Positions 22,341-45,461 of a stretch of DNA of 64,000 nucleotides are shown here, one piece after another (the first letter of the stretch is position 1; each line of letters begins with the position of its first letter). Under the pieces are notes generated by a model. That model had not been told where the DNA came from. It saw only the letters and a program-made list of their open reading frames with translations, and ran no database searches. Location of the stretch: NCBI GenBank assembly GCA_051294905.1, contig CM119372.1:25484001-25548000 (forward strand). The letters run 5' to 3'. The position numbers and the translations under genes are program-made. This DNA is from Botryllus schlosseri. Its lineage: Eukaryota.

Positions 22341-22505
22341 ATTTCTTTTTACCCTCTCTCAGCACTCGTGAATAAGTCAAAGTCAAATGACCATAAATTA
22401 ATTAGTCATGTAGAGAGAGAATCATCATCATCATCATTTATTAATATTTTTACCCAATCAATACACCACACGATTGCGAATAATTATTTGTCAATCGTGC
22501 AGATC

Positions 22506-22799
22506 AGTAGTTTGATAAATGGGCGGAATGTGCCAAATCACGATTTAACTTAAACAAACAAGAATTATGAATATGAAAGATAGTGAAAGAATTAGCTCAT
22601 TCTCAATTCTGCAGCAATACTCGAGGGGATTTCCCTTCTGACTGTGCGGCAATTAAAAAAGGGGAATAATTAGAGAGAAAACGAACAAAGAATCTGGATT
22701 GACCTTTGTACTCAGACATGAGACTTGAGTACTTCTACTTGTACTTTTCCACTCCTGATTCTACCTCGCCTGACCTCTGGTACACGAGACTTGTGTATT
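22506..22799 (+). repeat. Left terminal inverted repeat of the Polinton
   Basis: Reverse complement of 38638-38930. The first 269 bp have a single mismatch (22632). Confidence 0.97.
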
Positions 22800-23204
22800 T
22801 AGTAATTTTTTTTTATATTTTCCCTCGAATAACAATGGATTGACATTTAATTTCAATGGTATGCACGCCGACGAATCGGTATAGTTCTCCTGGCTTGACT
22901 TGTCGTTCCGCGGTGGATTGATTAATCCAGCTACGTGTAAACACGATGGGATTTGGGAATATTTGTCCGTCAAACATGACGTCAGTATAGTATTTGTTCC
23001 TTCGGATCCGTATGTGAGATCCCGGTTCGTGTTTTAGGTGGATTGTCAACGCGTTCGGCCAGACGAAACGATGCAAGGTAACGATTCTGGTCTGCGTCAT
23101 ACTGTTGACCTCTTTTTGCTCCCTGGATAGTAGCGAGTATGATCTTTATGATGCCAACGACTCCCGAACGCTCGTAAAAAGACTATAACGTATGCTGTAC
23201 AAGG

Positions 23205-23210
23205 TTTATT
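23205..23210 (-). terminator. Polyadenylation signal AATAAA at the end of the structural gene block
   Basis: TTTATT on the plus strand, 37 nt beyond the protease stop, at the end of the co-oriented gene array. Confidence 0.55.
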
Positions 23211-23246
23211 GAACATACACAATCTGAAAATACAAGTCACGAGCGT

Positions 23247-23693
23247 TCATAAAGTAGATTTTTCTTTGTTTACAAAATCAAAAACGAGGCGATCATTCAC
23301 ACGTTTATCAGAACCAAAAGCATCTAAATAATCGAGGGTACCTACACCTTGACCCCTTCTAATTAGGAAAGCGGTACAATGTTCGCCGCACACAAACGAA
23401 CGTAAAGACTGTAATTGCACACTAGTGAAGGTATAATCGTCCGCGCCCAATAACCTATAGATCTCCTTCTTCAGAGGCGGAATCCCGAAAGAGTCGTGAA
23501 AGTGCGTGCCATCTTGATCGGCGAAGATACAGATCCAATGCGAGCCGCCCTTCGCGTTAGGGTCGTAATTGATAACGACTGCGTACGGCTTAGGTAGCTT
23601 TGCTGGCAATAAATCGATCGCAAAAGTACCGGCAAATAAATCTCGCGTGTCGCGGTGATTGAATAAAATATGATTAATTTGATCGGTATTCAT
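23247..23693 (-). CDS. Adenain-like cysteine maturation protease (148 aa)
   Basis: Catalytic motifs GGSHW (His), FHDSFG (Asp) and QLQSLRSFVCGEHC (Gln/Cys). The likely ATG at 23693 overlaps the MCP stop (ATGA). Confidence 0.93.
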   Translation of the reverse strand: MNTDQINHILFNHRDTRDLFAGTFAIDLLPAKLPKPYAVVINYDPNAKGGSHWICIFADQDGTHFHDSFGIPPLKKEIYRLLGADDYTFTSVQLQSLRSFVCGEHCTAFLIRRGQGVGTLDYLDAFGSDKRVNDRLVFDFVNKEKSTL

Positions 23694-24964
23694 ACGGACA
23701 CTACTTCGCGCTTCTCTGAGATCTCCAAAAGTTGTTGGTATTCTTTGAGACACAGTAGAGTCGCACCTTCAGGCAACCCCGCGGTAAGGGTCATGTGAAG
23801 CTTCACGGACCCGGTCTTCTCTAGTTGAAAGCAGCCTTGATGCGTACGGTCTGGGGTCAAATCGAAGGCAAACAGAGTGTATCCCGCCTTATAATTCTCA
23901 GAGTCGATAAAAAGATCTTCCTGAGCATCCCACTTCCCGGTGGATTGGTAGACGCTGAAAAACCCCTCGAGGTTTGTGTTTTTATCAAAGTCGAATCTGA
24001 AATTACGCCCGTACAAAAGCTTCCCGTTCACGTTGATAGCCAGATTTCCGACGTGATAGTGACAGAAATTAAAGGGGTTTCGAGTCTTACTACCGTTATA
24101 GGCAGCGGTCGGGACCAGACCAATCACGATTCGTCGAGGCATGACCCCGGAAATCAGCGTTTTCTCAATGGAGGTATCACCCGCTCCAAAAGAGTGATTA
24201 CTCATTTCGAGCTTTATAATAGGGTATTTCGCCGTGTGCGTACGAAGCATCGTTTTGTGTGCCAAACTGACAGAGTCTGAAACTTGAATTTGCTTGACGT
24301 GCAATTCCACTTTTTTCAGTATGATTTTAGAGTCGGCAGACCCGAGGAGACAGAAATCGTCATCGTTACGGATTAATCGCAACGACAGATCCACGTTATC
24401 CAGTAAATATCTGTCCTGGTCGAATAAACCGAGCGGTATCTTGCCGATGACCTCGAGCGTTGCACTGTCAGCGGTCAGGGCTTTTCGTGCCGTGAAGCCG
24501 ACGTTGTCTGCCGTGAAAGCATCCTGCTGTTTCATCGTATCCGGGATCCAGCCGATACATTTCAGATAGGTTTCGCCGGCCGCGCGAGAGCTATTTAGTA
24601 GATGGAAAATGAAGCTTTTGTAGGCGTGATTGTTGTCCGATGTGGTGATCAGCTTCGAGCCCAGATACAGATCGATCTGCTTGAATAAGGCGTCAAATAT
24701 ATCCGATACGACAGCGACGTTGTCTCCCCCGATCGTGGTGCAATCTTTTTTGGTGACTTGCAGTTGTATTTTCATAAACGAGCTGGACAAATCCAAGTAA
24801 TGATCGCTACCTTTCACGTTAATCTCAATGACATCGCCCAATTTATCCGGTGTAGCGATCAACGTGCTGGTGTCGGCGACCGCCGTTTGCGTCGGTGGTA
24901 CCGTGAAAATATCTAATCCGCTGTTGAGGCACTCGGCCGAATTTTCGTGCATCAATTTAGCCAT
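23690..24964 (-). CDS. Major capsid protein (double jelly-roll), 424 aa
   Basis: Polinton MCP motifs LDIFTVPPTQ, LFKQIDLYL, LFDQDRYLLDNVDL, PRRIVIGLV..AYNGS..NPFNF and GYTLFAFDLTPD. Confidence 0.93.
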   Translation of the reverse strand: MAKLMHENSAECLNSGLDIFTVPPTQTAVADTSTLIATPDKLGDVIEINVKGSDHYLDLSSSFMKIQLQVTKKDCTTIGGDNVAVVSDIFDALFKQIDLYLGSKLITTSDNNHAYKSFIFHLLNSSRAAGETYLKCIGWIPDTMKQQDAFTADNVGFTARKALTADSATLEVIGKIPLGLFDQDRYLLDNVDLSLRLIRNDDDFCLLGSADSKIILKKVELHVKQIQVSDSVSLAHKTMLRTHTAKYPIIKLEMSNHSFGAGDTSIEKTLISGVMPRRIVIGLVPTAAYNGSKTRNPFNFCHYHVGNLAINVNGKLLYGRNFRFDFDKNTNLEGFFSVYQSTGKWDAQEDLFIDSENYKAGYTLFAFDLTPDRTHQGCFQLEKTGSVKLHMTLTAGLPEGATLLCLKEYQQLLEISEKREVVSV

Positions 24965-25355
24965 CGAATATATCTCTACGTCTACGTTTCTTGTTTGACG
25001 TAGTACCTCCCCGCGCGCCCTTTTTAAGCTTTTTCGTGGCTTTTCGTTTACGACCCCCGATCGCGGTATCGAGAAGCTGTAGACCTCCTTCTTTACTCCG
25101 TGATATAGCGGATTGCTTGAACGAGCGCCCGGCCACCAAATCTTTTGCGATATTTGACCCGGTACGGAGGATTTGTTTCCCCAGTATCTTGGAGCCTTTT
25201 GACACTAGAGGTAAGACCGCCCGGCCTATGGTTCGAAAAATCGACGCGAGTCCGCTACCGCTTTGCCTGGACCCCCGGTAAAACCCGTAATTCCCAGCTC
25301 CGGTCTGATAGTGGTGCAACACGGCTTCTCGGTCACAACAATAGTGCACTTTCAT
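24957..25355 (-). CDS. Basic core/membrane-lytic virion protein (pVII/pVI-like), 132 aa
   Basis: QxGxG candidate protease sites (QTGAG, QSGSG) are followed by the amphipathic LASIFRTIGRAVLPLV and a K/R-rich C-terminus. It sits just upstream of MCP, as in other Polintons. Confidence 0.8.
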   Translation of the reverse strand: MKVHYCCDREAVLHHYQTGAGNYGFYRGSRQSGSGLASIFRTIGRAVLPLVSKGSKILGKQILRTGSNIAKDLVAGRSFKQSAISRSKEGGLQLLDTAIGGRKRKATKKLKKGARGGTTSNKKRRRRDIFDG

Positions 25356-25717
25356 AACGACACCCTGAGATGTATCGTGAGGTCCAAACCCGAGATGTCC
25401 AATAATTCACCATACTCGTCCCTTATATAGATGCAGAAATACTCGAAACGGTCGAGTCTGACTTTGGCGTAGTATCGATTTTGAAATATATGGTTTTGTC
25501 GCTCCCCCTCGTGTAGCGCAACGACTCTTAGCAACGGGACCAAAGCGTCACCCACCGGCGTCGACTCGATGTCATTGCAGTAGATAAAAGCGTAGAGGCT
25601 TTCACGCGACTCACGAACAAAGTTTATCTCCATAAGAGCAATCTCAAGACCTTTACAATCCATTCCGTGGGGTAGGGTAAATACGGGCCCGTCACCGGTC
25701 AGTGTTTGGAACGTCAT
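25352..25717 (-). CDS. Minor capsid (penton) paralog 3, minimal 121-aa single jelly-roll
   Basis: Motifs EIALMEINF and FIYCNDIE..VGDALVPLLRVV...IYIRDEYG..LTIHLR are shared with the two upstream paralogs. Confidence 0.8.
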   Translation of the reverse strand: MTFQTLTGDGPVFTLPHGMDCKGLEIALMEINFVRESRESLYAFIYCNDIESTPVGDALVPLLRVVALHEGERQNHIFQNRYYAKVRLDRFEYFCIYIRDEYGELLDISGLDLTIHLRVSL

Positions 25718-26471
25718 CTCGTAAGTGAAGGGTCAATTCAATGTCACCACATTTAAGTTCTTTTCCAAGAGAATCTCTTATGCTGATGCGTACGCTACGA
25801 AAGCTGTTGGCATCGGCGGGTAGGTAAAACGGTTTCCTGAATGATACGTGCTGTCGTTTCATTTCCGGTACCGTAACGGGGATGATTCGCAGCAGTCTGG
25901 ACATATAATCACCGACCGGGAGATGGCGCACGCAATCGCAATATATAAATAAATACTGAGATTTTACTATCGACGAGGTATACCACGCATCGAATTCAAT
26001 GTGCTCAACCTCGCGTAATGAGATCGGAACCTCTCCTTCCTCCGCGATGATGTCGTCAATATCGTATCTCTGATGCTCGTGTATGATACGGTAGTTACCG
26101 AAATTCGCGTAAGGCCCGAGCGTAGATGTGAGCAGAGAAGAATTCGGTGGGAATCCCTCGCATACCAATCGATTCTGGCTGGGCGTAAAGTACCAGTGAT
26201 AGCCGTTCACGAGTTCCTCGCTAATTCTTTGCATTAATTGATCGACATTATCGAAATCTCCGGTGGGTAACTCATAGACTTCGGTGACGTCTTTGACAAT
26301 CGTATTCCAGAAGCTCAAGGTCGTGGTGGGTTCTGTGATCACAATTCTATCTTGAAAATCATGGCTGAAGCTAATTTCTTGAAGAGCGATCTGTTTACCC
26401 TCCGATTCGATTTCAATCGGTAATTCAACCGTGAAATCGGGTCCGCTCCCGAATATCGTGATATAGCTCAT
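25692..26471 (-). CDS. Minor capsid (penton) paralog 2, 259 aa
   Basis: Motifs QIALQEISF and LFIYCDCV..VGDYMSRLLRIIPV...FYLP...ISIRDSLG..LTLHLR. Confidence 0.82.
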   Translation of the reverse strand: MSYITIFGSGPDFTVELPIEIESEGKQIALQEISFSHDFQDRIVITEPTTTLSFWNTIVKDVTEVYELPTGDFDNVDQLMQRISEELVNGYHWYFTPSQNRLVCEGFPPNSSLLTSTLGPYANFGNYRIIHEHQRYDIDDIIAEEGEVPISLREVEHIEFDAWYTSSIVKSQYLFIYCDCVRHLPVGDYMSRLLRIIPVTVPEMKRQHVSFRKPFYLPADANSFRSVRISIRDSLGKELKCGDIELTLHLRDDVPNTDR

Positions 26472-27271
26472 AACGCTTTGACGGCTCCTCGACGGATCAG
26501 TAGGGTCACTGTAACCGGAGCTGTTTTAAACGCGATAGGGTTATTGTTCTTGTCACGAAGATATACTCGTATATTTCGAATATTACTCTTGGCCAGGGGA
26601 AAGAAGTAAGGCTTATCATACACGCAGTGCTGTATTTTTCCTTCTTGCGCGGTCACCGGAACGCTTCGAAGGAGAGGTACTAGCTCGCTGCCGAATACAC
26701 GAGGTCTGATCAGATCGGTGTATATATAAATGGTGTCTACATCTTTCACGATGGTTTTCGGTCTGATTAAGAACTCTATTGGTTTTTGTTTCTTCAAAAC
26801 ATGATGTTCCACTGTAAAATAACGCGGAAACGTGTCCTCGATGCTGGTGAGACGCGGACCCGCACCACTGATTTTTTTGACCCGTATCAAGGGCTCGTCG
26901 GCCTGTGGAAATCGACTCTTGAGATACCTAAAGCTCAAGCCGAACACGCCACCGGTATATTGCTTGATTGTAATTTCTTTCTCGTATCGCAAGCGAAACT
27001 GTTCCAACAGATCCGGGACACTGCGATACTTGCCGGGCGGTATGTAATACACGTGACGATGCCCGCTGTCAGAAAATTCGATACCCGCACGCTTGTGGTC
27101 TACCGTGAACGTGGGCTGGAAGCTTACTGGGAACATGATCTCAGCAAGCGATGCCTCATATCTTTCTGTATCATATTTTAACTCGGAGAATAGTTGGGTT
27201 ACAAAATCGTTCGCGGTGTTAGCCTTAAAAACGCTCATTGAAGAATTACTCGGTAAAACCAGAAGAGTCAT
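26468..27271 (-). CDS. Minor capsid (penton) protein 1, 267 aa
   Basis: Canonical Polinton mCP N-terminus LVLPSNSS...NTANDFVTQL...EASLAEIMFP, and C-terminal YIYTDLI...PLLRSVPV...YFFPL...YLRD. Confidence 0.88.
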   Translation of the reverse strand: MTLLVLPSNSSMSVFKANTANDFVTQLFSELKYDTERYEASLAEIMFPVSFQPTFTVDHKRAGIEFSDSGHRHVYYIPPGKYRSVPDLLEQFRLRYEKEITIKQYTGGVFGLSFRYLKSRFPQADEPLIRVKKISGAGPRLTSIEDTFPRYFTVEHHVLKKQKPIEFLIRPKTIVKDVDTIYIYTDLIRPRVFGSELVPLLRSVPVTAQEGKIQHCVYDKPYFFPLAKSNIRNIRVYLRDKNNNPIAFKTAPVTVTLLIRRGAVKAL

Positions 27272-27434
27272 CCTCGTCGGCGGTTTGGAGAGACAGTACC
27301 CTAGTTAACGAAGATATATCCGTCTGGGTTTCGGTGAATAAGTTATACACAGTTACCCCCACGATAAAAAGCAGTATCGCGAGCTGTAGAACCACCAAAG
27401 GTATCCGTAACGTACCCCGCTGCGATAAATCCAT
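27246..27434 (-). CDS. Small single-pass membrane protein (62 aa), unknown function
   Basis: It fills the gap between integrase and penton 1 in the same orientation. It has a hydrophobic span IPLVVLQLAILLFIVGVTVYNLF and an acidic tail. Confidence 0.5.
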   Translation of the reverse strand: MDLSQRGTLRIPLVVLQLAILLFIVGVTVYNLFTETQTDISSLTRVLSLQTADEDDSSGFTE

Positions 27435-27464
27435 GATTACCACGGTCGAGTCACCGTCTCTGTT

Positions 27465-28466
27465 TTATACAAAACTGTCAACGTAAGAGTCCATCGATTT
27501 TGGATAACCCTCCCAGCGCACTAGATATCTCCGCTTGCGCCCTCTACCGATCACTCTCTGTATCGATTCTACGCGATAGACATCGTCTTTTTTATCGATG
27601 GCTTGTAATTCACTTTCGTAGAACGTTCCACTAATCACGTCCCCGTTATAATCTCGGATGGTGTACGTAGCGGGGCTCCCCAATTTCCGTGTGTGTACGT
27701 AAAATATCTCGCGAGTCCAAGATCCCGCAGTCCCTTTCGCAAACGTGGCACGTCGGGTGGTAATTCTCACTGGTTGATCGACGGGTAGCTTGGGTGACAC
27801 CGGAGGTCCGGTTCCGTTGTATAGTCTATCGAACACCAGAGACGCGTTGCTATTGGTAACCTCCGACGGTCGCATTAAAATCGCGGTGTGATACGTTTGG
27901 TTATAGCTCTCTGCGATATCACACAACACGTCGATGTAGCGATGTGTGCGGTTCTTGACAAAGTAGCGATTCAATATATTGCGGGTCGTACGAATTACCC
28001 GCTCTACGACGCTAGCCTTAGTATCAATGTTGGTAAAAAAGTGCTTGACGTGGTTGTCTCTAAAAAACCTCTGTATAACCGACCCCGTGAATTCTTTCCC
28101 GGCATCAGTCTGAACGACGTGTGGTCTCTTATGAGCGAATACCTGGTTGAAGCCCTCGATCATATCTATAGGACGCTTTCGTTTCGTGGCGTATAAAAAC
28201 ATATATTTCGAAAAACAACAAATTGACACCAACACATAACGATAGCCATCATTGCTACTAGAAATATTAGACAAGTCCATGAGGTCACTCTGGATCTGAA
28301 TAAATGGCCCGCCGACGATCGTCTTTTGTCGTTGAAATTTGCCTGTATACGGATAGAATAGGGTGTAGCTATCCTCTTGTTTCAAATCCTTCTTGTCGGG
28401 GTGCAAGTATTTACCGCGATAGCTCGCCGGGGCTTTGATATCAAAATATTTATCCTTACTCGTCAT
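27465..28466 (-). CDS. Retroviral-type (RVE) integrase with C-terminal chromodomain, 333 aa
   Basis: DDE motifs QSDLMD, QTDAGKEF and KASVVERVIRT, plus YNQTYH. The chromodomain reads YRVESI...YLVRWEGYPKSMDSYV. Confidence 0.95.
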   Translation of the reverse strand: MTSKDKYFDIKAPASYRGKYLHPDKKDLKQEDSYTLFYPYTGKFQRQKTIVGGPFIQIQSDLMDLSNISSSNDGYRYVLVSICCFSKYMFLYATKRKRPIDMIEGFNQVFAHKRPHVVQTDAGKEFTGSVIQRFFRDNHVKHFFTNIDTKASVVERVIRTTRNILNRYFVKNRTHRYIDVLCDIAESYNQTYHTAILMRPSEVTNSNASLVFDRLYNGTGPPVSPKLPVDQPVRITTRRATFAKGTAGSWTREIFYVHTRKLGSPATYTIRDYNGDVISGTFYESELQAIDKKDDVYRVESIQRVIGRGRKRRYLVRWEGYPKSMDSYVDSFV

Positions 28467-28908
28467 CGTCGTAGGCCGTCCACGACCCGTAGAGCTGGGG
28501 CGGCTTCCTGTTAGCTCGACGGCTACGTTTGATGATCTCTTGCAGTGGCGGTGATCTTTTGGCTATCTTGCTTGTGGTGGGGGTACTTGGAGACGACGGG
28601 GCTTTCGGTGTTACTTTCGAGGTGACCCGACCCGGCTTCACTTCGTGCAGTAATTCACGGAGAGTGGCTATCTGATCGTTCGTGAACCCGTTGGAGGTGT
28701 CGGTCATCTTCATCTGAAGAGGCTTGTCGATCTGACCCCGTTGACTTTTATACTTTGAGATGGCAGAGTTATACAAGGACAATTTCTTGTCGGCCGAAAC
28801 GTCCATAGTCAAAATCGCGCTGATCGATCGGTCCAACTCGGAGTTCAAATCAGTCGCGTTAGAGGGAGCTAGAGGGTTAGGCGATATGATCACTTTTTTG
28901 AAATTCAT
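28456..28908 (-). CDS. Conserved Polinton hypothetical protein, 150 aa
   Basis: LDRSISAIL..VSADKKLSLYNSAISKY resembles the helical motif of the small ORF usually found upstream of Polinton integrase. It overlaps both neighbouring genes. Confidence 0.7.
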   Translation of the reverse strand: MNFKKVIISPNPLAPSNATDLNSELDRSISAILTMDVSADKKLSLYNSAISKYKSQRGQIDKPLQMKMTDTSNGFTNDQIATLRELLHEVKPGRVTSKVTPKAPSSPSTPTTSKIAKRSPPLQEIIKRSRRANRKPPQLYGSWTAYDDDE

Positions 28909-29279
28909 TTTTTGCCAAAAACAGATTTCAACAACGATGCCGCCAAGGGGAGGATTGACAAGATACCGCTAATAAAACCTCCTCGTTGGGTGTTGGCGTG
29001 TAATACACGTCTCTTGGTCTTCAAGCTCAACTTTTTACTTGTCAGCTTTCGAATTTTGTCTTTATGCGGGTGTAAATTTTGTATATGGCGTTTTGACAGT
29101 CGCAGATTGCCGTTCAAAACATTCACACAGACTTCACAAAATGCCTTCACCAAACCGGGCGAGCTCCCCAATAATATATCCTTCCTTACCGCGGGCGACG
29201 CCTTGGACAGAAATTTCAAAGTCTCGCCGTGCTTCTTAATATAACAGTGACGTTTCGGCAGCGATTTGGTCCGAGCCAT
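28905..29279 (-). CDS. Basic Polinton virion protein with QRGG/F site and C-terminal amphipathic helix (pX/pVI-like), 124 aa
   Basis: Motif LVKAFCEVCVNVLNGN...IRKL...KRRVL..QRGGFISGILSILPLAASLL. Confidence 0.8.
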   Translation of the reverse strand: MARTKSLPKRHCYIKKHGETLKFLSKASPAVRKDILLGSSPGLVKAFCEVCVNVLNGNLRLSKRHIQNLHPHKDKIRKLTSKKLSLKTKRRVLHANTQRGGFISGILSILPLAASLLKSVFGKK

Positions 29280-29316
29280 TATGAATATAGTGTCAAAGTG
29301 CCGGCACTTTCGCTAT

Positions 29317-29958
29317 TTATAGTGGCGTGTACAACACGAGTTCATCCCCAGGAAACACCCCTGTTTTAACACGACTAGAATCGGGTGTGGCTTGCGTCAA
29401 ATCTATAAAAAGGTACCCGTGAGCGTTCTTTGTCGCATCGGCATACGCATCAACTAGAAACTTGGAGTTACCAGGGTACATTTGCTTGCCAAGCACTCGA
29501 ATCTGAGATCGATCTCTAGGATTACGCATGATAATCAAATACTGGGTGCTGAGACTGAGGTCCCTCGATCTTTTGGACTGGAAATATAAATTTTGGACCG
29601 CGAATATTGTGGTCACCGATTTATGATTCGCGTAGACTGTAAAAAAGGGGGTCACCCTGTCCGAAAATTCCATTTTATCGTCAATAATTAATAGAGTAGG
29701 ACAGGGGCGGCTTGTCGCCAACTCATCCAAAATGGAGAGATCCGAGTAAAACTCAACACCTTGCAGCTCGTCAAAGGAGTCTTGGTAAGCCGTATAGCAA
29801 TAGATAATTCTTTTAATTCGCCCCTTTGAAAGCTGATCGATATTTTTTATGACTTTAAATATAAAAGTACTCTTCCCCGAAAACGACGGTCCTGCCAAAA
29901 GACACGCCCTCCCTGTCGAGAAATCCATCACCAAGGCTGTTTTGACACGACGAGACAT
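29317..29958 (-). CDS. A32/FtsK-HerA-family genome packaging ATPase, 213 aa
   Basis: Walker A GPSFSGKS, Walker B LLIIDD, plus VQNLY, NPRDRSQI and GYLFIDL. Confidence 0.93.
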   Translation of the reverse strand: MSRRVKTALVMDFSTGRACLLAGPSFSGKSTFIFKVIKNIDQLSKGRIKRIIYCYTAYQDSFDELQGVEFYSDLSILDELATSRPCPTLLIIDDKMEFSDRVTPFFTVYANHKSVTTIFAVQNLYFQSKRSRDLSLSTQYLIIMRNPRDRSQIRVLGKQMYPGNSKFLVDAYADATKNAHGYLFIDLTQATPDSSRVKTGVFPGDELVLYTPL

Positions 29959-29976
29959 GTATTCACAAACACACTT

Positions 29977-29986
29977 CTATATATAA
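29977..29986 (-). promoter_or_regulatory. TATA-like box of the structural/integration gene block
   Basis: TTATATATAG lies about 20 nt upstream of the ATPase ATG, the first gene of the overlapping array. Confidence 0.4.
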
Positions 29987-30077
29987 CAAGGACAGGTACA
30001 CGAAAAAATATGGCGATTCAGAGCGTCACGCAAACCGTCCACACAGCGAATCTTACAATGTCCACGAGGCCGTCTTT

Positions 30078-30950
30078 TTACACCAGAAGCGAGGTGTCAT
30101 AATCGACACGAGAAGACGAGGCATCATCAGGGCTCAGCGGTGTCCTGGCCAAGGCTCGAGGTCTACGAGGGGGAGGGTAAGGTGATACCCGGCCGGGTGA
30201 CTTTTTTGTTATGATTTTAGTCAGATTCGGTCTTGGTAGCACTGGCGACTGATGTATGTCTCTGGCACGCTGTGGTGTCGCCACGACAAACGGGGCAGTC
30301 AGATTCGGTCTTGGTATCACTGGCGACTGATGTATGATGTCTCTGGCACGCTGTGGCATCGCAACGACAAACGGGGCGTCAACCACGGTAGGTGATGTGT
30401 CGACGGATTTAGGGGCGCGACGATCTTCTCCCGCTCGGAGATAACCCTGGTTCATGAAGCGGTATCGGTTAATGTCGTTTCCTTCATGAGTCAAGCGCTG
30501 ATCGCGGCTCTGTACGCTGCAGGCGGCACGATCGGTTGGGTCTGTGAAGCCAACTTGACGACGATTCAAGATACGGGCATCAGTCAGCAGTCGGCTCGTC
30601 ACACCATCGCCTTCATACGTGAACACAGGTAGAAACTGCAGCTCCGTCACACACCGCAACAGGTCGTTTCGAAAGCTCATCCATTCTAGAAGACAAAAGA
30701 TAGTTACACATGTGCCGGGTAATGACTATTACCGCTTGTTACCTGGTCTCAAGGTGGTGGCAATGTGTAGACGATCCTGCAACTCTTTCTTGAAGTGAGT
30801 AGTTTGCTGATCGGTCAGATTGTCTTCCAGCAGAATATCTTTCAGCACAGAGACACGATGCCAGTTGGCTTGGGTGTCGCGGTGAAGTCTATTGAGTGAA
30901 AGCTGGCCACAAACATGACTAATGAAATCGCTAGCTGAGTTGTGAGTCAT
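30078..30950 (-). CDS. Spliced Polinton gene of unknown function (exons 30950-30743 and 30685-30078, ~271 aa) with a Pro-rich repeat
   Basis: Donor CCAG|gtaaca (phase 1) and acceptor tcttctag|AA TGG ATG join two ORFs in frame across a 57-nt intron. A strong acceptor tttttcccag directly precedes ATG 30950. Confidence 0.55.
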
Positions 30951-31328
30951 CTGGGAAAAAACAAAAATAACACACATATTACAAACTGAAACGCCGCCTT
31001 CGAAAACTAGTCGCAAGCGACAGGCGTTGATGATAGAAAAAGCGTTCAATATGGAACAAAATTTCACAGTGAGCACCAAAAGATAAACAATGTATCCCAA
31101 CAAAATAGTGTCTTCGTTTTAACATGTCTTTGACGTGCCGCCGAAACACTATAAAATAAAATAATAGTAAGACTCCATACTTGTGTCACAATATACAACC
31201 CCACCTGTTTTTAGGAATTCCATGCGACTCGACAGGTCTTGTAGCTGAGACGGGCGAGGAGGACGCCAGCAGATTCTTGTGTCTATGAATAAACGTGCCT
31301 TAGCAACGACAGAGAGCTAAGAGCATAT

Positions 31329-31571
31329 TTACACACCCCCAATCTCCTCCAAGATGTTTCTGAGTCTTCTCACGTCCATGTTCAAAGCCTCTATCTTCAA
31401 GACCTCAGCCAAAAGTTCCACCCGGTCTGCCCCACATTCGTGTCGTATGATCAGGCCAAACAGAACGCCAATCTCAAACTTGTCTTTCTGCTCGCACGGA
31501 GGTAAATGATCGTACCCAGACATGTACTCCCGCAGCGGGAAGAATTCTGCATGATCAATGTATTGATCCAT
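31329..31571 (-). CDS. Polinton ORF/exon of unknown function (80 aa)
   Basis: The ATG is immediately preceded by acceptor ttctcag. An upstream mini-exon 31658-31631 has a perfect gtgagt donor. Confidence 0.45.
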   Translation of the reverse strand: MDQYIDHAEFFPLREYMSGYDHLPPCEQKDKFEIGVLFGLIIRHECGADRVELLAEVLKIEALNMDVRRLRNILEEIGGV

Positions 31572-31886
31572 CTGAGAATTGCGACAATTATGATTTCAAT
31601 TTATGATGAATCATAACAGTTTCAACTCACCACGATTCCTTCTATACGCTGATAAAATCTGAAAAGAAAAAACTCATTGTATTATACAATCATGAAACAC
31701 AATACGCTTTTCCCCACCTGCTGTAAACTATTGCGATGTTAATGCTATCGTCTGTAAACAACACGAGAAAACGAGCACTATTGTGAAAGGTTCAAGATGC
31801 ATAGAATAATTCGAGTCAACATGAGAGCATAATGTGAAAACAGATATAAAAAAGCAGAGAACATGAACAGTGCACATTTGAAAAAA

Positions 31887-34800
31887 TCATAGTTCCAAGG
31901 GTCTCGTATGAATACCATCTGATTCGACTATTCGCTTACAGTAGAAGTGAGACAAGGCCGATCGAAATTGCTCATAGGTAAAAATGGAAGCATTTTTTCG
32001 CACAAATCCAGAATTAATATCCCCATGTGGTTTTTTCTCAAACAACACTTTCCGGTAGATGTCAGCAGTCAGTTTGTTTACTTTCGAGAGCCCTTTGCAT
32101 GAGTACTTATCCTCATTACAATAATAAGTCTTTGCGGACAGACCAACAAAAATATTCGATTGTGCCTCAATTTTGAAAAGACCACTGGTCCGTTGATCAT
32201 ATCGATTACGAGCTTTACAACAGGCACGTTTATCATTGAACGAGAGAGGATTGGCCAAAAATTCATCACGGTGCTCGTCACAGGCGATTGCTGGAAAATA
32301 TTTGTGAAAATTTTCAAAAAATTCTGCTTGTTTTTCGGGTCGTACAACTTTTAGCAGGCTGTCAGAGGAGATTGCGCCGTACCAGGAATCAGTGTCCGAA
32401 TATGCTAGTGCGATGGACCGTGGCAGGAGGTAGGTGGACAGATACGAATGGAACCGTAATAAGGCCAATTTCGCATACCCATACACAAAGTACCCAATGT
32501 GGTTAGGTTGGTTCCAAACATGTTTTCTCAATTTCATGGACACCTCAAAAATATCTGGTGACAACTCAATCATTGATTTAAATCTGGAGTCATTTACCAA
32601 GACCATAGCTTTTTGGCGGTTAACAATCTTGACATCAGAATATTTTGTACAATTCGAGATAGTTTTACCTATACAGGAATTTGCAATGTCTTTATAGAAC
32701 TGCCCCAGTGGCTTCTGGGACGGGTCATCGTCAGCCCGTCTTCTAGCCTCGGTTATCGTATCTACAAGAGAATTGAAACATTCAATGGGTTCAAACTCGA
32801 TAGCTTGAAATACCTTAGTAACGATTAACCCGTTCTCGAGATACCACTTCAATAGTGGTGTTATTAACAATGTTTTTGTGGCCTGCAGAGTAGCGATCAA
32901 GAATTTCCGTGGCCGTTTCAAAAAACCATGTTGTTCAGCAAATGCTTTCATGTACGGGCCTATATCATCACGACTTACGTAAGCATGTTTGAACAGGGGA
33001 CAGAACTCACTAAAATGCTCCTTGAGGTGACTAGGCACATGAATATCGACCTCAACGGCCCCAAAAAATTGATCTTTTGACACCAACTCTAAGAGTTTCG
33101 AACTTGAAAGGACCCGACATTTCACCATTTTACTGGATTCGAGAGTTTGAATAAAGGCAGCTATATCACTTCGTTGGCGCATAATGACCCATTGACATTC
33201 TGTGATGTACTCCAATTTATACCCCACTTTTTGAATATACTGGATTTTACGCTGCGTCGCGGCCCAGCGGGCTTGACGATCCGGGCTGGCTCCCAACTCG
33301 CAGCCGTGACCGTGGTGAAAACATCCAAACAGCTCAAGTGCAACAGGCCCTTGTGGGGTCCTATAATACCCATCAATACAAATCTGGAGCAGGCCGATAC
33401 GATGCTCAGGACCATTGAATTGATGTTGGATTTTGACCCCCCGACAGTGCGCAATGTAGCTTAGCCATTGGTGAGCCATTTTTCCATAGAGCGGTGCCGT
33501 TTTTGTCCTGGAGAATAGAGTAAAATCTTCATTAGGTGACCACAGACAAGGATAGCCCCCCGGTAATCGTGAACGAAGAGTATCCAAATAGAGACAGTTG
33601 GCGTCGACCCCTAGCACCTGTTCTACAGGTAGAGCGTTATCACCATAGATTTGGGGTTTGATTTTTGTGACTTTAGCCTCTGCATATCGCAATGAAACAA
33701 CAGAAAGCCCGCCACGTAGATTTTCCCGTATCAAGGTGTGTATATGGCTATACTTTTGATTCAACAAGGTAAATACAGGTGGTATGCTATTAAACATAAA
33801 CCGTGATGCCAGAGACGGCAATGATATACCGTCTTTACTCATGTCAATTGAGTAACGAGCAAAGAGTTGCTTGTGCTTTGTGAGGGCCTCCAGTAACGGC
33901 CCGACATCTAAACTGACATAGAAAGATAGATAGTCACGAAAAGTAGTCATTTTATGTTCTGCCCACTTTGATTGACACCAAAGATATTGCTCATCTGTTA
34001 TATTAGACCGTTTCAGTTTGTTATAGAAATGTATGTGGTCTGGGAGAGATTTTTCATCCAATACCGATAAATCAGTGAAATAGTTATACGGAAAAAAGGC
34101 CTTCGTTGAAGCACAGTTATGACAACGTGTGTACGCATCATAACTTGTACCGGCGCCAAGATACAAGGTCACATCCAAAAATCGAAATCGATTAGTCGAC
34201 AAGGACATATACGACGTACCCCTCTTAACAATACTGATAGGGTCTGATAAGTACTCCACCAGATATGGGATAATCAAAGGTATATCATAGCGAGACCCAT
34301 TGAAAGAGAATACAGGTAATTGACTCAAATAATTCAAAAAACGATGTTTCAATAAGGTTGCCGGGCTCATACGCTTGACATCCGGCTCAGCGGTATGCAT
34401 TTCTTGAGCAATACAATCTAATCGCTCCAACACGTCATGAAATTGTTGACATAATGACTCAAAACAATCACTTTGGATCAATTCAAAACGTGACATCATT
34501 CTAGCAACCAGCGCCCCAGGGTCGCCATCACTAATCAGTACTTCTGGGGTCTCGTACCCTGGGTAATTACATGCGAAGGCCACCGCGGCCGGGATATGAT
34601 GATCTACATAGTGCACATTAGCAGTGTCGTTTGGGGTCGAGCCTTTTTGTAATATACTCTCATAGTCAAAAACCAAGTTATACGGGTAGAAACGAGATGG
34701 TTTGGGCACGATTATACCCAACTCGTCCAACGCTTCAAATATAGTAGGCTCAGGCTTGAACATACCCCCACGGTAGTGGTTAGGAATGCCTTTAAAACAA

Positions 34801-35765
34801 TTATGACGTTTGAGATAATATTTTGAACTGAACAGGCGATGACAGGTCTCACAGCTATAATTCTTACAATATAAGTTCAAATTTTTAATATAACATGAAT
34901 GTCTTCCTCCCTCTAAATGAACGTGAATTTTCAACCCCTCCCGAGCACCGTGCCGTAGTATATAACCGACCCCATCTTTCAATGTATATACACAGATGGA
35001 TACTTTAAGACATGACTCGACTTTATCTAGGTCGTTCATACACACACCAGAATCAGGGTCCCCATATAAAGCGGAATATTGTGCCACCAGAGAGAGTGTT
35101 TTAGATTGTAAGTCATCACCACGATAATTACCACCACAAAGCATAACAGCGACACAGCGAAATATACAATAATGATCGTCATAGGGTACACCATGTCGAT
35201 TTTTCATTAAATCCAAAACACTATGTGAATTCACAATAGACTTTGGGATTTCGATTGTACTACACCCAATTAATCTGAAGTCAGATTTGTACACGTAAAA
35301 GGTCACGTTTGTGACCGCCAAGACCGCAAATTTAGTATCGTCTCTTTGAAAGCGAGCACTCTCGAAGCCCGCGTCCAGGTCTATATCGCTTACAAATTGG
35401 TCAAAGTCACTACGATTGGCAATCATTTTAGGTGTATCCAACATAACACCAGCGTTCTCGGACGCATGATAGTATCTCAATTCGCTTGTCTCAACATTAT
35501 CAAGTATGTGGGCAAAGGCGTAATTGATTCTAAAACCATACTGCTGTGAGACGAAGATGTCCTGTAGATCGTTGATGACGTCACTGGGGTTGCGGCCGAG
35601 TATACGGAAATTGTGTAGGCTGCGTATACTGTGCGGTGCGAGTGTTGAGCTGCGAATGGAGTGCCAGTTTTCTTCCACGATCTCGATCAGATTTTCAGGT
35701 ATACCCAAGCTGCTTGGTTGTGCGAAATCAGACACAATTCTAACAAGGTGTCGTCGCCTAGACAT
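31887..35765 (-). CDS. Protein-primed family B DNA polymerase (pPolB) with N-terminal TP/OTU-like and Zn-finger regions and an inserted nuclease-like domain
   Basis: Exo motifs VFDYES, FNGSRYD and YVSLDV. Pol motifs GVDANCLY, KDIANSCIGK, YSDTDS and GLFKIE..AKTY. It is 1292 aa from MSRRRH (35765), which follows a tttccag acceptor. Confidence 0.96.
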   Translation of the reverse strand: MSRRRHLVRIVSDFAQPSSLGIPENLIEIVEENWHSIRSSTLAPHSIRSLHNFRILGRNPSDVINDLQDIFVSQQYGFRINYAFAHILDNVETSELRYYHASENAGVMLDTPKMIANRSDFDQFVSDIDLDAGFESARFQRDDTKFAVLAVTNVTFYVYKSDFRLIGCSTIEIPKSIVNSHSVLDLMKNRHGVPYDDHYCIFRCVAVMLCGGNYRGDDLQSKTLSLVAQYSALYGDPDSGVCMNDLDKVESCLKVSICVYTLKDGVGYILRHGAREGLKIHVHLEGGRHSCYIKNLNLYCKNYSCETCHRLFSSKYYLKRHNCFKGIPNHYRGGMFKPEPTIFEALDELGIIVPKPSRFYPYNLVFDYESILQKGSTPNDTANVHYVDHHIPAAVAFACNYPGYETPEVLISDGDPGALVARMMSRFELIQSDCFESLCQQFHDVLERLDCIAQEMHTAEPDVKRMSPATLLKHRFLNYLSQLPVFSFNGSRYDIPLIIPYLVEYLSDPISIVKRGTSYMSLSTNRFRFLDVTLYLGAGTSYDAYTRCHNCASTKAFFPYNYFTDLSVLDEKSLPDHIHFYNKLKRSNITDEQYLWCQSKWAEHKMTTFRDYLSFYVSLDVGPLLEALTKHKQLFARYSIDMSKDGISLPSLASRFMFNSIPPVFTLLNQKYSHIHTLIRENLRGGLSVVSLRYAEAKVTKIKPQIYGDNALPVEQVLGVDANCLYLDTLRSRLPGGYPCLWSPNEDFTLFSRTKTAPLYGKMAHQWLSYIAHCRGVKIQHQFNGPEHRIGLLQICIDGYYRTPQGPVALELFGCFHHGHGCELGASPDRQARWAATQRKIQYIQKVGYKLEYITECQWVIMRQRSDIAAFIQTLESSKMVKCRVLSSSKLLELVSKDQFFGAVEVDIHVPSHLKEHFSEFCPLFKHAYVSRDDIGPYMKAFAEQHGFLKRPRKFLIATLQATKTLLITPLLKWYLENGLIVTKVFQAIEFEPIECFNSLVDTITEARRRADDDPSQKPLGQFYKDIANSCIGKTISNCTKYSDVKIVNRQKAMVLVNDSRFKSMIELSPDIFEVSMKLRKHVWNQPNHIGYFVYGYAKLALLRFHSYLSTYLLPRSIALAYSDTDSWYGAISSDSLLKVVRPEKQAEFFENFHKYFPAIACDEHRDEFLANPLSFNDKRACCKARNRYDQRTSGLFKIEAQSNIFVGLSAKTYYCNEDKYSCKGLSKVNKLTADIYRKVLFEKKPHGDINSGFVRKNASIFTYEQFRSALSHFYCKRIVESDGIHTRPLEL

Positions 35766-35875
35766 TCTGGAAACAAAAAACACAGAATCAATAACAGCTA
35801 GCACAAAACACACATTAATACATATGATATTACAGCATAAGCATGCAATAAAAACATGATAGCACACCAAAACAG

Positions 35876-36355
35876 TTACACATTCGTATAAAATTTCATG
35901 GTGGCTCTGGCAGCTGACATCTCTTTGAGAAAGGCAACTTTCGCACGCATGATGCGTTCCAAGGGTAATTGCATACGCAAATCCTGCCCGTTCGACTGAG
36001 ATAGTATTTGCGAAATTTCTTGCTCTATCCGGTTATAATCTTGAGTGAATGTTTCATGAGAAGGAAAACTAGATCTCGAAAGTATATCATCCACTTCCCC
36101 CAAAATAGTGAACATCGCTTCCGATGGGGCGATTGAGATAGCCTCAACAATGGTCGCCTTGAGGTGCTCCATCATTCGTCTACTGTATTTACCAAACCTC
36201 TCACCCCCAGGTCTACGTCTGGATGGGAATACAGGAGGTTGGGCTGGATTTTCTACATTTTCTGGAATATCATTTGCAGGGCTAATCGCATCGAGCAGGT
36301 CTACCGGATAACCACCTTCCATCAATTCTGGTATCCCGTTATCAGCCATAGTCAT
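35876..36355 (-). CDS. Helical ORF (159 aa), possible 5' exon of pPolB or a separate protein
   Basis: Open frame from ATG 36355. The donor GT|gtaact at 35880/35879 joins in frame to the pPolB acceptor at 35766. Confidence 0.55.
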   Translation of the reverse strand: MTMADNGIPELMEGGYPVDLLDAISPANDIPENVENPAQPPVFPSRRRPGGERFGKYSRRMMEHLKATIVEAISIAPSEAMFTILGEVDDILSRSSFPSHETFTQDYNRIEQEISQILSQSNGQDLRMQLPLERIMRAKVAFLKEMSAARATMKFYTNV

Positions 36356-36380
36356 GAGCAAAGATTTGTGATTGTAAGCT

Positions 36381-36750
36381 CAATTTACACTTACTTATAG
36401 ACACTGTAGCCACATGACAAGCAGAAGAAGGGACTCAACACAGTTTAACAGTGCCAGCAAAACGCGGGAAGGAATTTTATGACCCTCCACTCGCCTTTTC
36501 CCCCAACCATTTGAATATACATACAAGCCTCTTTTTTCTCTCGTGTCATACTCGCATACCCAATTTACACTTACTTATCGACACTGTGAGCCACATGACA
36601 ATTGGAAGAAAGTACTTAAAACAGGTAAACAGAGCCGGCAAAATTCGGCAAGAAATTTTATGACACTCTACTTGGCTACCACCCTTTTTTCTCCAAAGCA
36701 TTTGAATATAAATACAAGACTCTTTTTCTCTAGTGACATACTTACAGGCA
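36381..36750. promoter_or_regulatory. Bidirectional promoter region made of two ~180-190-bp tandem units
   Basis: CAATTTACACTTACTTAT..ACACTGT..GCCACATGACAA occurs at 36381 and 36561, and CATTTGAATATA.ATACAAG.CTCTTTTT occurs twice. The region lies between the divergent pPolB and OB-fold genes. Confidence 0.6.
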
Positions 36751-36760
36751 TAATTACATC

Positions 36761-37468
36761 ATGGCATGTAAATACAACCCGTACGAAAATACTGCAACGA
36801 AGCGCAAGCTAGATATTGACTTGAAACGGGCTGCCCCATCTCATATTCCAAATTTCGACAATGCCACCAGTTTCTATGGCACGCAAGTCAGCTTCGACGG
36901 GCGTGTGCAATTGGCGTCGACCAGACGACATGGACCCAAGATGACTTATATGAAAGTCTTGATCACAGATGGTAAAAAATCTCTACCAGGGGTGATATTC
37001 AATGACAAATTACTGGACTGCATCGAAACTGCATACAGACAAGGTCATACTATGACATTCTGTAACATCAAGATCACTGCTGACGCAAGAACTGATGCCC
37101 CGTCATTAATCATTGGTCACAATTCTACTGCTACGAAGAGCAAAGCACGCTTACCCTGTCCAGAGATGGTTGAATTCCGGTACGTGTCCGCAGAAGATAT
37201 CCAAAAAGGCTTGTACGATGACAAGATTGTTAATTACAGAGGTCTCTGTATTGCCACGGATTCTGAATCCATTGGCACAAACTCGGAGAGACAGCTACAT
37301 TCATATGCACTAGTGAATGGTGACATTTCTGTTGATCTGAAAAATTGGGGTATTATACCGTTATTCACTGCTGACAAATACTATGATGTCACCCATCTAC
37401 GTGTACAAGTCCGATCTGGCAAACGTGAGCTGTTCTTACAAGACTATTCGCGTATTTGTAAAGAGTGA
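36761..37468 (+). CDS. Putative tandem OB-fold (RPA/SSB-like) ssDNA-binding protein, 235 aa
   Basis: Two beta-rich repeats with an OB-like pattern: VLITDGKKSLPGVIFND...TFCNIKI...LIIGHNS and VNYRGLC...ALVNGDISVDLKNWG...YDVTHLRV...LFLQDYSRI. AATAAA follows at 37485-37490. The fold call is by eye. Confidence 0.65.
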   Translation: MACKYNPYENTATKRKLDIDLKRAAPSHIPNFDNATSFYGTQVSFDGRVQLASTRRHGPKMTYMKVLITDGKKSLPGVIFNDKLLDCIETAYRQGHTMTFCNIKITADARTDAPSLIIGHNSTATKSKARLPCPEMVEFRYVSAEDIQKGLYDDKIVNYRGLCIATDSESIGTNSERQLHSYALVNGDISVDLKNWGIIPLFTADKYYDVTHLRVQVRSGKRELFLQDYSRICKE

Positions 37469-38637
37469 ACTGTTTCATGTATGAAATAAAAGAAACATGT
37501 GATTATTTTGTTTACACTATCAGAGATTAGGGTTGGTAAACTTTCTAACCTGCCAGAATACATCATCTTTCAATATCATACTACTAGCTATCGTCTCGAT
37601 TCGGCAATCTCACACGAGCGGTATGGAAAAGAGGTTATCAGATTGTAAAACCGCGTGTTTGTGAGAGCACTATACGGAGTGATAATTAAAACAGAGCGGG
37701 ACAGTACCACAGTACATTAACAGGGGGGAAAATCGGCGTGATACTTAATCAATACTCAACTCTCGCTTCCAGTATAGTGACCAAGCGACGGCCGAGACCA
37801 ATGTCCAACGTTTTCGAACAAAGAGAATAATTCCTCGACCCAGCGGGGTGTATTGCAGGACAAAGGCGCTGTGCATGTCTACGAGGCGACATGACTGATT
37901 TCGAAAGCGAGATTGTCGCTCCTCGGCACAGCAGGGTGGATCACAAAACAAAAGGCGCTATGCAGTCTACGCGGCCGCATGTCTATTTTCGAAAGCGAGA
38001 TTGATCATCGTTAAATGGGTCTTGGACAAAAGCAACGATAGCAGCGCGTCGTATAATACCCGAGCTGAGTAGTTATAGTATACTATAAACCTGATCCTCA
38101 CACCACCGACGAGCCGTAACCACAATTCTAATACCGCGACAATCCATACACAATTATACACCATACCGAGAGCTTTCAAGGTATCTGTCGGCGGGCTTCG
38201 ATCGATTGTCGACACGTGATCCGTGCTCTGTGACCCGTAACAATAGCGGGGTTTATTTACATGGATATTCTTTCCTGTCCTCGAGAACTCGAGTTGACAC
38301 GTATATTTATAGACATAACAGATCATTTCTCCCGTTACATCTTCGATCAATAACAAAGTAGAGTACGATTCCAGTATGACACAGCCCGTAGGCGTCACTC
38401 TGCACAGACAAACGTAAGTAATCGATACTCCACTTTGGCGTATCATCTGGCCGGACGCGCGTTGACAATCCACCTAAAACACGAGCCGGGATCTCACACT
38501 CGGACCCGAAGGAACAAATACTATACTGTTGTTGTTCACGGGGAGATATAAAAATTATTAGTAAGTGTATACCAATGAAATTAAAAGACAATCCATTGAT
38601 GTTCGTGGGAAAATGTAATAAATACTATCAAATACAT

Positions 38638-38930
38638 AATACACAAGTCTCGTGTCCAGAAGTCAGGCGAGGTAGAATCAGGAGTGGAAAAGTACAAGTA
38701 GAAGTACTCAAGTCTCATGTCTGAGTACAAAGGTCAATCCAGATTCTTTGTTCGTTTTCTCTCTAATTATTCCCCTTTTTTAATTGCCGCACAGTCAGAA
38801 GGGGAATCCCCTCGAGTATTGCTGCAGAATTGAGAATGAGCTAATTCTTTCACTATCTTTCATATTCATAATTCTTGTTTGTTTAAGTTAAATCGTGATT
38901 TGGCACATTCCGCCCATTTATCAAACTACT
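38638..38930 (-). repeat. Right terminal inverted repeat of the Polinton
   Basis: Reverse complement of 22506-22799. It ends ACTACT followed by TSD CAGATC. Confidence 0.97.
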
Positions 38931-38946
38931 CAGATCATAAGAAATA

Positions 38947-45030: not shown

Positions 45031-45461
45031 TAGGGTTGCATTTAAAACAAAAATCAATTAAAAATGAACATACTTAAAACAAGGCCCTAATTTAAAACAT
45101 GTTTTTCATTGGTTTTTTGTTTTTAAGCCATGGCGTCATGAATATTGAATTGTGACGTCATAATGGATATAAATTGATATAGGGTAAATATAGCCCCTTT
45201 GACAAAATATCTGTACTACAACTGTTGAACCGACTATTTTTTAGGGTTCCAACCATCCCAACGATATACGTCGGCTAAATTTGGTGGTAATTGTCCGTGT
45301 GCTCATACAACATGTTTTTGGAAAGTATTTACACAATTCACAATTATGGCATAATTTTATAACTTGAAAAAAAATACAATTTTGTTTTTTAATAAGGCTT
45401 TCGTTTAAAATATGTTTAAAAAAAGTGTTTCAAAACACCGTTTGTTTTAAATGAAACCCTA
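45031..45461. mobile_element. MITE (TAGGGTTGCATTTAAAAC TIR)
   Basis: Inverted ends. A truncated sister copy lies at about 18019-18270. Confidence 0.6.

Follow-up and report, generated by a model that had tools for sequence, protein, structure and literature searches.

An intact Polinton/Maverick with a spliced polymerase-side half

The window, a 64,000-nt stretch of Botryllus schlosseri DNA, contains an intact Polinton/Maverick, and the region flagged by the first-pass annotation is the polymerase-side half of this element (Table 1). The available text of PMC10748475 defines such elements by a size of 13-25 kb, terminal inverted repeats (TIRs) of 100-1500 bp and a target-site duplication of 5-8 bp. 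With 16,425 bp and 275-nt arms pairing at 99%, the element lies within these ranges, and the identical 6-mer that flanks it at 22500-22505 and 38931-38936 constitutes a 6-bp target-site duplication. Its retroviral-like integrase matched PF00665 (rve) above the cut-off (E 5.9e-08). Its protein-primed family B DNA polymerase aligned with P0001 (E 2.5e-71), which in turn matches PF03175 at 1.4e-08; searched directly, the window polymerase gave no Pfam match.

Eleven packed ORFs, which abut or overlap on the minus strand, make up the other half. Minor and major capsid proteins and a protease are presumably among them, as we judge from size, order and motifs. The P-loop matches of the ATPase ORF were weak and below the cut-off, the best match of the protease candidate was to the S273R cysteine protease at E 1.2, and the capsid candidates matched no family. 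Single-sequence structure models reached pLDDT values of 28.5 (capsid candidate) and 30.7, and the PDB and PHROGs searches returned nothing significant. Searches for related loci yielded 148 pattern matches among metagenome contigs, none among viral contigs and 95 in a second viral-contig search, and not one of these matches was confirmed.

Table 1. Features of the Polinton/Maverick and of its transcripts (positions are those of the window).
Feature	Positions	Strand	Remarks
Polinton/Maverick, intact	22506..38930		16,425 bp; TIRs, AGTAGT ends, 6-bp target-site duplication on both sides, long uninterrupted ORFs
Left TIR, outer part	22506..22780		275 nt, 99% complementary to 38656-38930
Eleven packed ORFs, including P-loop ATPase (29958) and integrase (28466)	23247..29958	-	rve E 5.9e-08; weak P-loop matches
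Gene C, 271 aa	29940..30950	-	SL + exon 30950-30743, intron 30742-30686, exon 30685-29940
Gene B 3' UTR, 28 nt	30951..30978	-	pyrimidine tract + AG of the SL acceptor
Gene B, 160 aa	30979..31571	-	exons 31571-31337, 31282-31205, 31148-30979
59-nt GT-AG intron closing at ATG 31571	31572..31630	-	X24, 9 reads; X1, X3
28-nt non-coding mini-exon, without ATG	31631..31658	-	
59-nt GT-AG intron in gene B leader	31659..31717	-	deduced from sibling-copy contig
Protein-primed family B DNA polymerase, 1292 aa	31887..35765	-	33% identical to P0001 (E 2.5e-71)
1388-nt GT-AG intron	35767..37154	-	6 X24 reads (4 starts), one X1 contig, one X3 contig
159-aa ORF nested in polymerase intron	35876..36355	-	without acceptor before ATG
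Two-unit repeat of ~185 bp	36370..36745		GTAAGT sites at 36394, 36574, 36745
235-aa gene, predicted RPA-like OB-fold ssDNA-binding protein	36761..37468	+	Atlas feature matches 0.95
Non-coding leader exon of polymerase mRNA	37155..37373	-	joint 35766/37155; 37373 is a depth-bin edge only
Right TIR, outer part	38656..38930		pairs with 22506-22780

Four flagged acceptors have four different partners

Four of the 24 listed runs, all of them RNA or presumed RNA, were aligned to 23150-38360. X24 is raw bulk RNA, of which about 6 in 100 reads were sampled; X22 is raw, stranded single-cell RNA, of which about 3 in 100 reads were sampled; X1 and X3 are assembled contigs whose RNA origin is a guess. Only 507 of the 2079 X24 reads were at least 99% alike to the window, indicating an origin in sibling copies, and X22 was nearer to the window sequence (125 of 206 reads). 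Eleven joints were listed. Six are minus-strand GT-AG introns, with each GT-AG joint present in two to four of the four runs, and the 31204/30950 joint came from one X3 contig. Joints 31572/31634 and 35768/37160 look like variant-copy versions of the junctions 31630-31572 and 37154-35767, and two joints (29998/30615 and 35940/36357) are non-canonical. Rare non-canonical joints in X24, namely 29998/30615 (4 reads), 32761/35545 (3) and 30108/30419 (2), are probably library artefacts.

The first-pass annotation had pointed to strong 3' splice sites immediately before four minus-strand start codons. The acceptor AGs do lie where it placed them: the distance to the ATG is 1 nt at 35765, nil at 31571 and 30950, and 5 nt at 30680. 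Three of them are strong, pyrimidines making up 12, 13 and 13 of the 15 nt, and that at 31571 is weak (9 of 15). When a strong acceptor was defined as YAG preceded by at least 12 pyrimidines in 15 nt, a threshold chosen after the data had been seen, one occurred 0-5 nt before the start of 3 of the 17 element ORFs compared with 13 of the 2320 ATGs on both strands of the window (binomial P = 1e-4). None of the 11 capsid-side starts was preceded by a strong acceptor. The RNA data show that each flagged acceptor is in use and that the partners differ: donor 37154 is joined to 35766, 31630 to 31571 and 30742 to 30685, and the host spliced leader (SL) is joined to 30950. The suggestion that host SL trans-splicing serves these sites was confirmed at 30950, where 67 reads carry the SL, and at that site alone among the loose ends listed; the other three acceptors close cis introns. 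Nor does each ORF have an unspliced 5' end of its own, the arrangement that the annotation had set against its proposal, because the genes are multi-exon.

Gene C receives the host spliced leader

The 57-nt intron of gene C was removed in 57 X24 reads and in contigs of X1 and X3, leaving a spliced frame that is open over 271 aa from ATG 30950. This frame passes through position 30680, so that the start codon formerly assigned there is an internal Met of the spliced gene. Poly(A) at 29940 was found in 19 X24 and 4 X22 reads. The sibling indels inside gene C are 3 and 6 nt long (63 of 96 and 93 of 145 X24 reads) and preserve the frame.

At the 5' end, 67 X24 reads had loose ends at 30952, at the acceptor AG 30952-30951. 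In minus-strand reading, 23 of 23 letters of the tag were identical to the first 23 letters of the 25-nt 'Chordata 1' SL exon, as given in Table 1 within the available part of PMC3795323. The last two SL letters (AG) coincide with the acceptor AG at 30950, and in the window the 16-nt core of the tag had no match under three mismatches. Seven letters beyond the tag look like what we take to be a template-switching adapter, and the SL therefore lies at the 5' end of the RNA. Furthermore, X24 depth was 95 at 30942, 1 at 30953 and 4 at 30958, indicating that most boundary reads do not continue into the upstream DNA. These data confirmed that acceptor 30950 receives a non-templated host leader, that is, trans-splicing. 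A leader of this type makes a tunicate host likely. At 30942, 94 of the 95 X24 reads carry a letter other than that of the window; sibling copies or alleles, and not this exact sequence, are therefore the source of the SL reads. X24 was the one run to show the SL (with a consensus agreement of 0.82; X22 had no depth at 30942), and 30950 was its only site among the loose ends listed, so that further SL sites may exist.

None of the 337 homologue candidates for gene C exon 2 was confirmed, and a match of its first 100 aa to P0002, a repeat protein, was set aside as a repeat artefact. Two repeat units of ~80 nt lie in the Pro/Arg-rich tail of the protein (30219-30377). The poly(A) site falls within the ATPase ORF, 18 nt from its ATG (29958), and follows closely on a TATA-like site at 29985; the 3' end of gene C and the likely promoter for the capsid-side genes thus overlap. 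A candidate for the gene C poly(A) signal is AATACA at 29963.

Gene B and the polymerase gene are spliced in cis

Both introns within the gene B coding region were supported by all four runs: that at 31283-31336 by 25 X24 and 4 X22 reads, that at 31149-31204 by 20 X24 and 21 X22 reads, and each by X1 and X3. Upstream of the mini-exon, the letters between the X3 joint 31661/31738 and the X1 loose end match window positions 31718-31733 at 15 of 16, and because of this match the X3 joint was read as the 59-nt intron 31717-31659. An SL at 31658 was considered as the main form and dropped, as X3 pairs this acceptor with donor 31717. Gene B has no credible homologues, and the best Atlas score of its exon 1 (0.77) provided no lead. 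Its 3' end is predicted at about 30951. Three 'ORFs' of this region are two multi-exon genes, B and C, and annotation by ORFs alone both misses and splits Polinton genes.

In the polymerase leader exon, the coding frame is interrupted by a stop at 37297 and offers no further ATG, and the coding sequence begins 1 nt past the cis acceptor. Short upstream ORFs are present on the minus strand of the leader region 37155-37330, with ATGs at 37326, 37304, 37300 and 37272; if they lie within the leader exon, they could damp polymerase translation. Within the 1388-nt intron lie the two-unit repeat and the 159-aa ORF, along with the 5' half of the 235-aa gene on the opposite strand. The 159-aa ORF had no Pfam match and a depth of 0 in both raw-read runs. 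In one X3 contig, 35941-36356 is missing between non-canonical ends, which may reflect a sibling copy that carries a deletion.

The 235-aa gene is preceded on the plus strand by TATAAA (36707, 54 nt before its ATG) and followed by AATAAA (37485). It lies in antisense orientation to the leader exon and the intron of the polymerase gene, and low plus-strand RNA was present near its 3' end in X22. The two-unit repeat is likely a duplication of this plus-strand promoter. PF16900 (REPA_OB_2) occurs in 56-74% of the members of the Atlas clusters that match the 235-aa protein at 0.95, a match of features with no alignment; the protein itself had no Pfam match, and 0 of 193 homologue candidates were confirmed. 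As a lead only, it is a candidate single-stranded-DNA-binding protein of the RPA type.

Genes B and C probably form an operon without spacer DNA

The SL join at 30950, five cis introns in raw reads and the poly(A) site at 29940 are observed. Together with the cis introns that close at 35766, 31571 and 30685, the SL at 30950 is in our judgement probably best explained if B and C are a spacer-less two-gene transcript that is split by trans-splicing. The mRNA of gene B would then end at the SL acceptor itself, and one primary transcript would give rise either to the B mRNA, polyadenylated near 30951, or to the SL-capped C mRNA. The polymerase mRNA has its own non-coding leader exon, joined across the 1.4-kb intron.

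Several findings bear on the B/C boundary. Genes B and C have the same orientation, merely 28 nt separate the gene B stop from the SL acceptor, and the downstream gene is SL-spliced, which is the arrangement by which Ciona-type operons are recognized (same strand, less than 100 nt apart, SL on the downstream gene). In X22, the gene B pile contained 8, 32, 36, 45, 26 and 5 reads at 62, 100, 106, 145, 218 and 292 nt from 30951; the gene C pile contained 4, 31, 38, 35 and 2 reads at 7, 128, 168, 214 and 303 nt from its poly(A) site. The B pile resembles the C pile and so fits a 3' end at the SL acceptor, and no A-rich stretch that could be a source of false priming lies by it. One X3 contig splices the gene B donor 31204 to 30950, removing 31204-30951, and this joint needs an RNA that crosses the B/C boundary. 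Colinear X24 depth at the boundary was 1-4. No AATAAA was present upstream of 30951, and no poly(A) loose end at 30951 was among those listed. A long B-C fusion frame was considered and rejected, since the colinear frame stops at 30981 and the 31204/30950 form at 30933.

The strongest competitor, which we nevertheless consider quite unlikely, makes gene C a stand-alone SL gene with a promoter inside B or further upstream, where the SL removes an outron and no operon exists. It is favored by the depth of gene C, which in X24 exceeded that of the gene B exons 3- to 8-fold (130-160 versus 20-40) and was also far higher in X3; an internal promoter for C would explain this difference as well. Most trans-spliced genes are, moreover, monocistronic in Ciona and other trans-splicing animals, according to the available text of PMC1488885. 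However, the short distance between the B stop and the acceptor argues against it, as do the B 3' pile that fits an end at the acceptor and the B-to-C splice in X3. Between 33221 and 29985 the minus strand is free of TATA-like sites, and the X22 3' piles of B and C are about equal (12.8 and 14.2).

The polymerase mRNA might head the transcription unit of B and C, a possibility that we rate somewhat below even. Two features hint at a polymerase mRNA that ends at a boundary like that of B and C: a smaller X22 pile, with a depth of 2.2, over 31786-32293, and the acceptor at 31751, which looks unpaired. It is conceivable, although rather doubtful, that the whole replication arm (polymerase, B and C) is one polycistronic unit whose promoter lies close to the right terminus, where a TATA-like site is present at 38311, and in which mutually exclusive SL cuts at ~31751 and 30950 would set the ratio C > B > polymerase.

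A shared leader from the repeat is very unlikely

The main proposal of the first-pass annotation was an adenovirus-like common leader, spliced in cis from GTAAGT donors in the repeat to several ORFs and driven by a promoter within the repeat. The GTAAGT sites were correctly located on the minus strand at 36394, 36574 and 36745, and a perfect GTAAGT is present in both repeat units. As donors, however, they found no support: GTAAGT is at chance frequency, with 4 on the element minus strand versus 4.9 +/- 2.2 in 200 base shuffles, and none of the 11 listed joints starts at one of these sites, at a repeat coverage so low (0.58 and 0 in X24, 0 in X22) that infrequent junctions could have gone unnoticed. 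Position 36394 lies within an X3 contig (35908-36464) that is unspliced there. The assignment of the repeat as a promoter for the minus-strand ORFs was not confirmed either: its TATAAA at 36707 is on the plus strand and faces the 235-aa gene at 36761. Finally, each of the four acceptors already has another partner.

Such a leader might be restricted to a lytic phase that is absent from the samples. The capsid-side genes, with raw reads near zero in both X24 and X22, would be in keeping with this and could possibly belong to a late programme with other junctions; in the available part of 10.1101/341131, adomavirus late genes likewise have acceptors right before their ATGs. On balance, the evidence from the joints makes a shared leader very improbable.

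Least probable of all, and hardly credible, is incidental processing, in which host read-through crosses inserted copies and the spliceosome puts the SL on any unpaired strong acceptor without a role in the element: the flat X1 depth of 12-71 over the whole element, the silence of the capsid-side genes in raw reads and the available account of Cer1, in which the SL-bearing mRNA is not the capsid-making one (PMC3315495), could be read in this way, but the SL is placed precisely at the start codon of a spliced frame that is open over 271 aa, contains only indels that keep the frame, and is followed by a poly(A) site of its own, and expression is confined to B and C rather than spreading from the flanks.

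Comparison with known operons and mobile elements

The most likely reading, that B and C are a spacer-less operon of the Ciona type, has close parallels in Ciona intestinalis. In operons without intercistronic DNA, as described in the available text of PMC1488885, same-strand neighbors carry the SL on the downstream gene, AATAAA is absent from the upstream gene (in 16 of 18 operons), polyadenylation of the upstream mRNA takes place at the acceptor G, and a transcript may give either mRNA and not both; the same text leaves the mechanism of upstream 3' end formation open. The predicted coincidence of the gene B 3' end with the acceptor would match this pattern. The B/C pair differs in belonging to a mobile, virus-like element and in an SL of the 25-nt 'Chordata 1' type, compared with 16 nt in Ciona in the available sources. 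We infer that B and C are an operon of this kind.

Among mobile elements, the precedent in print for an SL on element RNA, so far as the available sources go, is a retrotransposon, and none was found for Polintons. The mRNA of the Caenorhabditis elegans LTR retrotransposon Cer1 is both cis-spliced and furnished with the host SL1 (PMC3315495, available part). Unlike the present element, Cer1 is a retroelement with SL1 on one 2.4-kb spliced RNA, which is found with and without SL1, and the available account does not describe operon resolution. At eri-6/7 of C. elegans (PMC11414722, available part), Polinton sequence and trans-splicing likewise meet at one locus; there, however, two host pre-mRNAs are joined via Polinton TIR repeats, with no SL and no Polinton gene as substrate. 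The late units of adomaviruses and adenoviruses (10.1101/341131, available part) resemble the present genes in having acceptors directly before initiator codons, but the acceptors there belong to late virion genes, which in adenovirus receive a tripartite viral leader. In the present element, by contrast, the acceptors lie on the replication side, each with a partner of its own, and no strong acceptor precedes a capsid-side start.

The element agrees with Polinton/Mavericks as the available part of PMC10748475 describes them in size, TIRs, 6-bp target-site duplication, protein-primed polymerase and integrase. Spliceosomal introns and SLs are not mentioned in the Polinton texts searched, whereas the polymerase-side half of the present element contains six introns or more, besides one SL site. 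No SL-spliced Polinton or viral operon was found among the literature listings searched. Term searches of the available text of PMC12721341, PMC10748475, PMC11161782, PMC12220804, PMC4402516 and PMC3691228 likewise found none, and the available text of PMC4402516, on the Oikopleura Tor retroelements, contains no trans-splicing terms.

Polintons are known almost only from DNA, and their gene expression has hardly been examined in the literature searched. Here, a real and expressed virus-like DNA element is subject to known mechanisms, host SL trans-splicing and probably operon resolution, and its copy family is transcribed, spliced and SL-capped as host genes are. If B and C are a spacer-less operon, they offer a compact, well-expressed mobile unit in which upstream 3' end formation in tunicate operons can be studied. 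A further question is whether dependence on a host SL confines a virus-like element to hosts that trans-splice. Should the whole replication arm prove to be one unit, it would represent a DNA virus lineage whose gene expression is built on the host SL machinery, with a virus-borne, SL-resolved operon.

Termini and flanks of the element

Inner inverted blocks that match at 73-94% lie inside the 99% TIR arms, at 22782-23104 and 38372-38655. The TIR thus seems to be longer than 275 nt, with a diverged inner part that includes a 95-aa ORF (22813-23100). Dispersed host repeat families flank the element at 18018-18157 and 45030-45177, at 43244-44862 and at 48417-48660, some of them with inverted ends.
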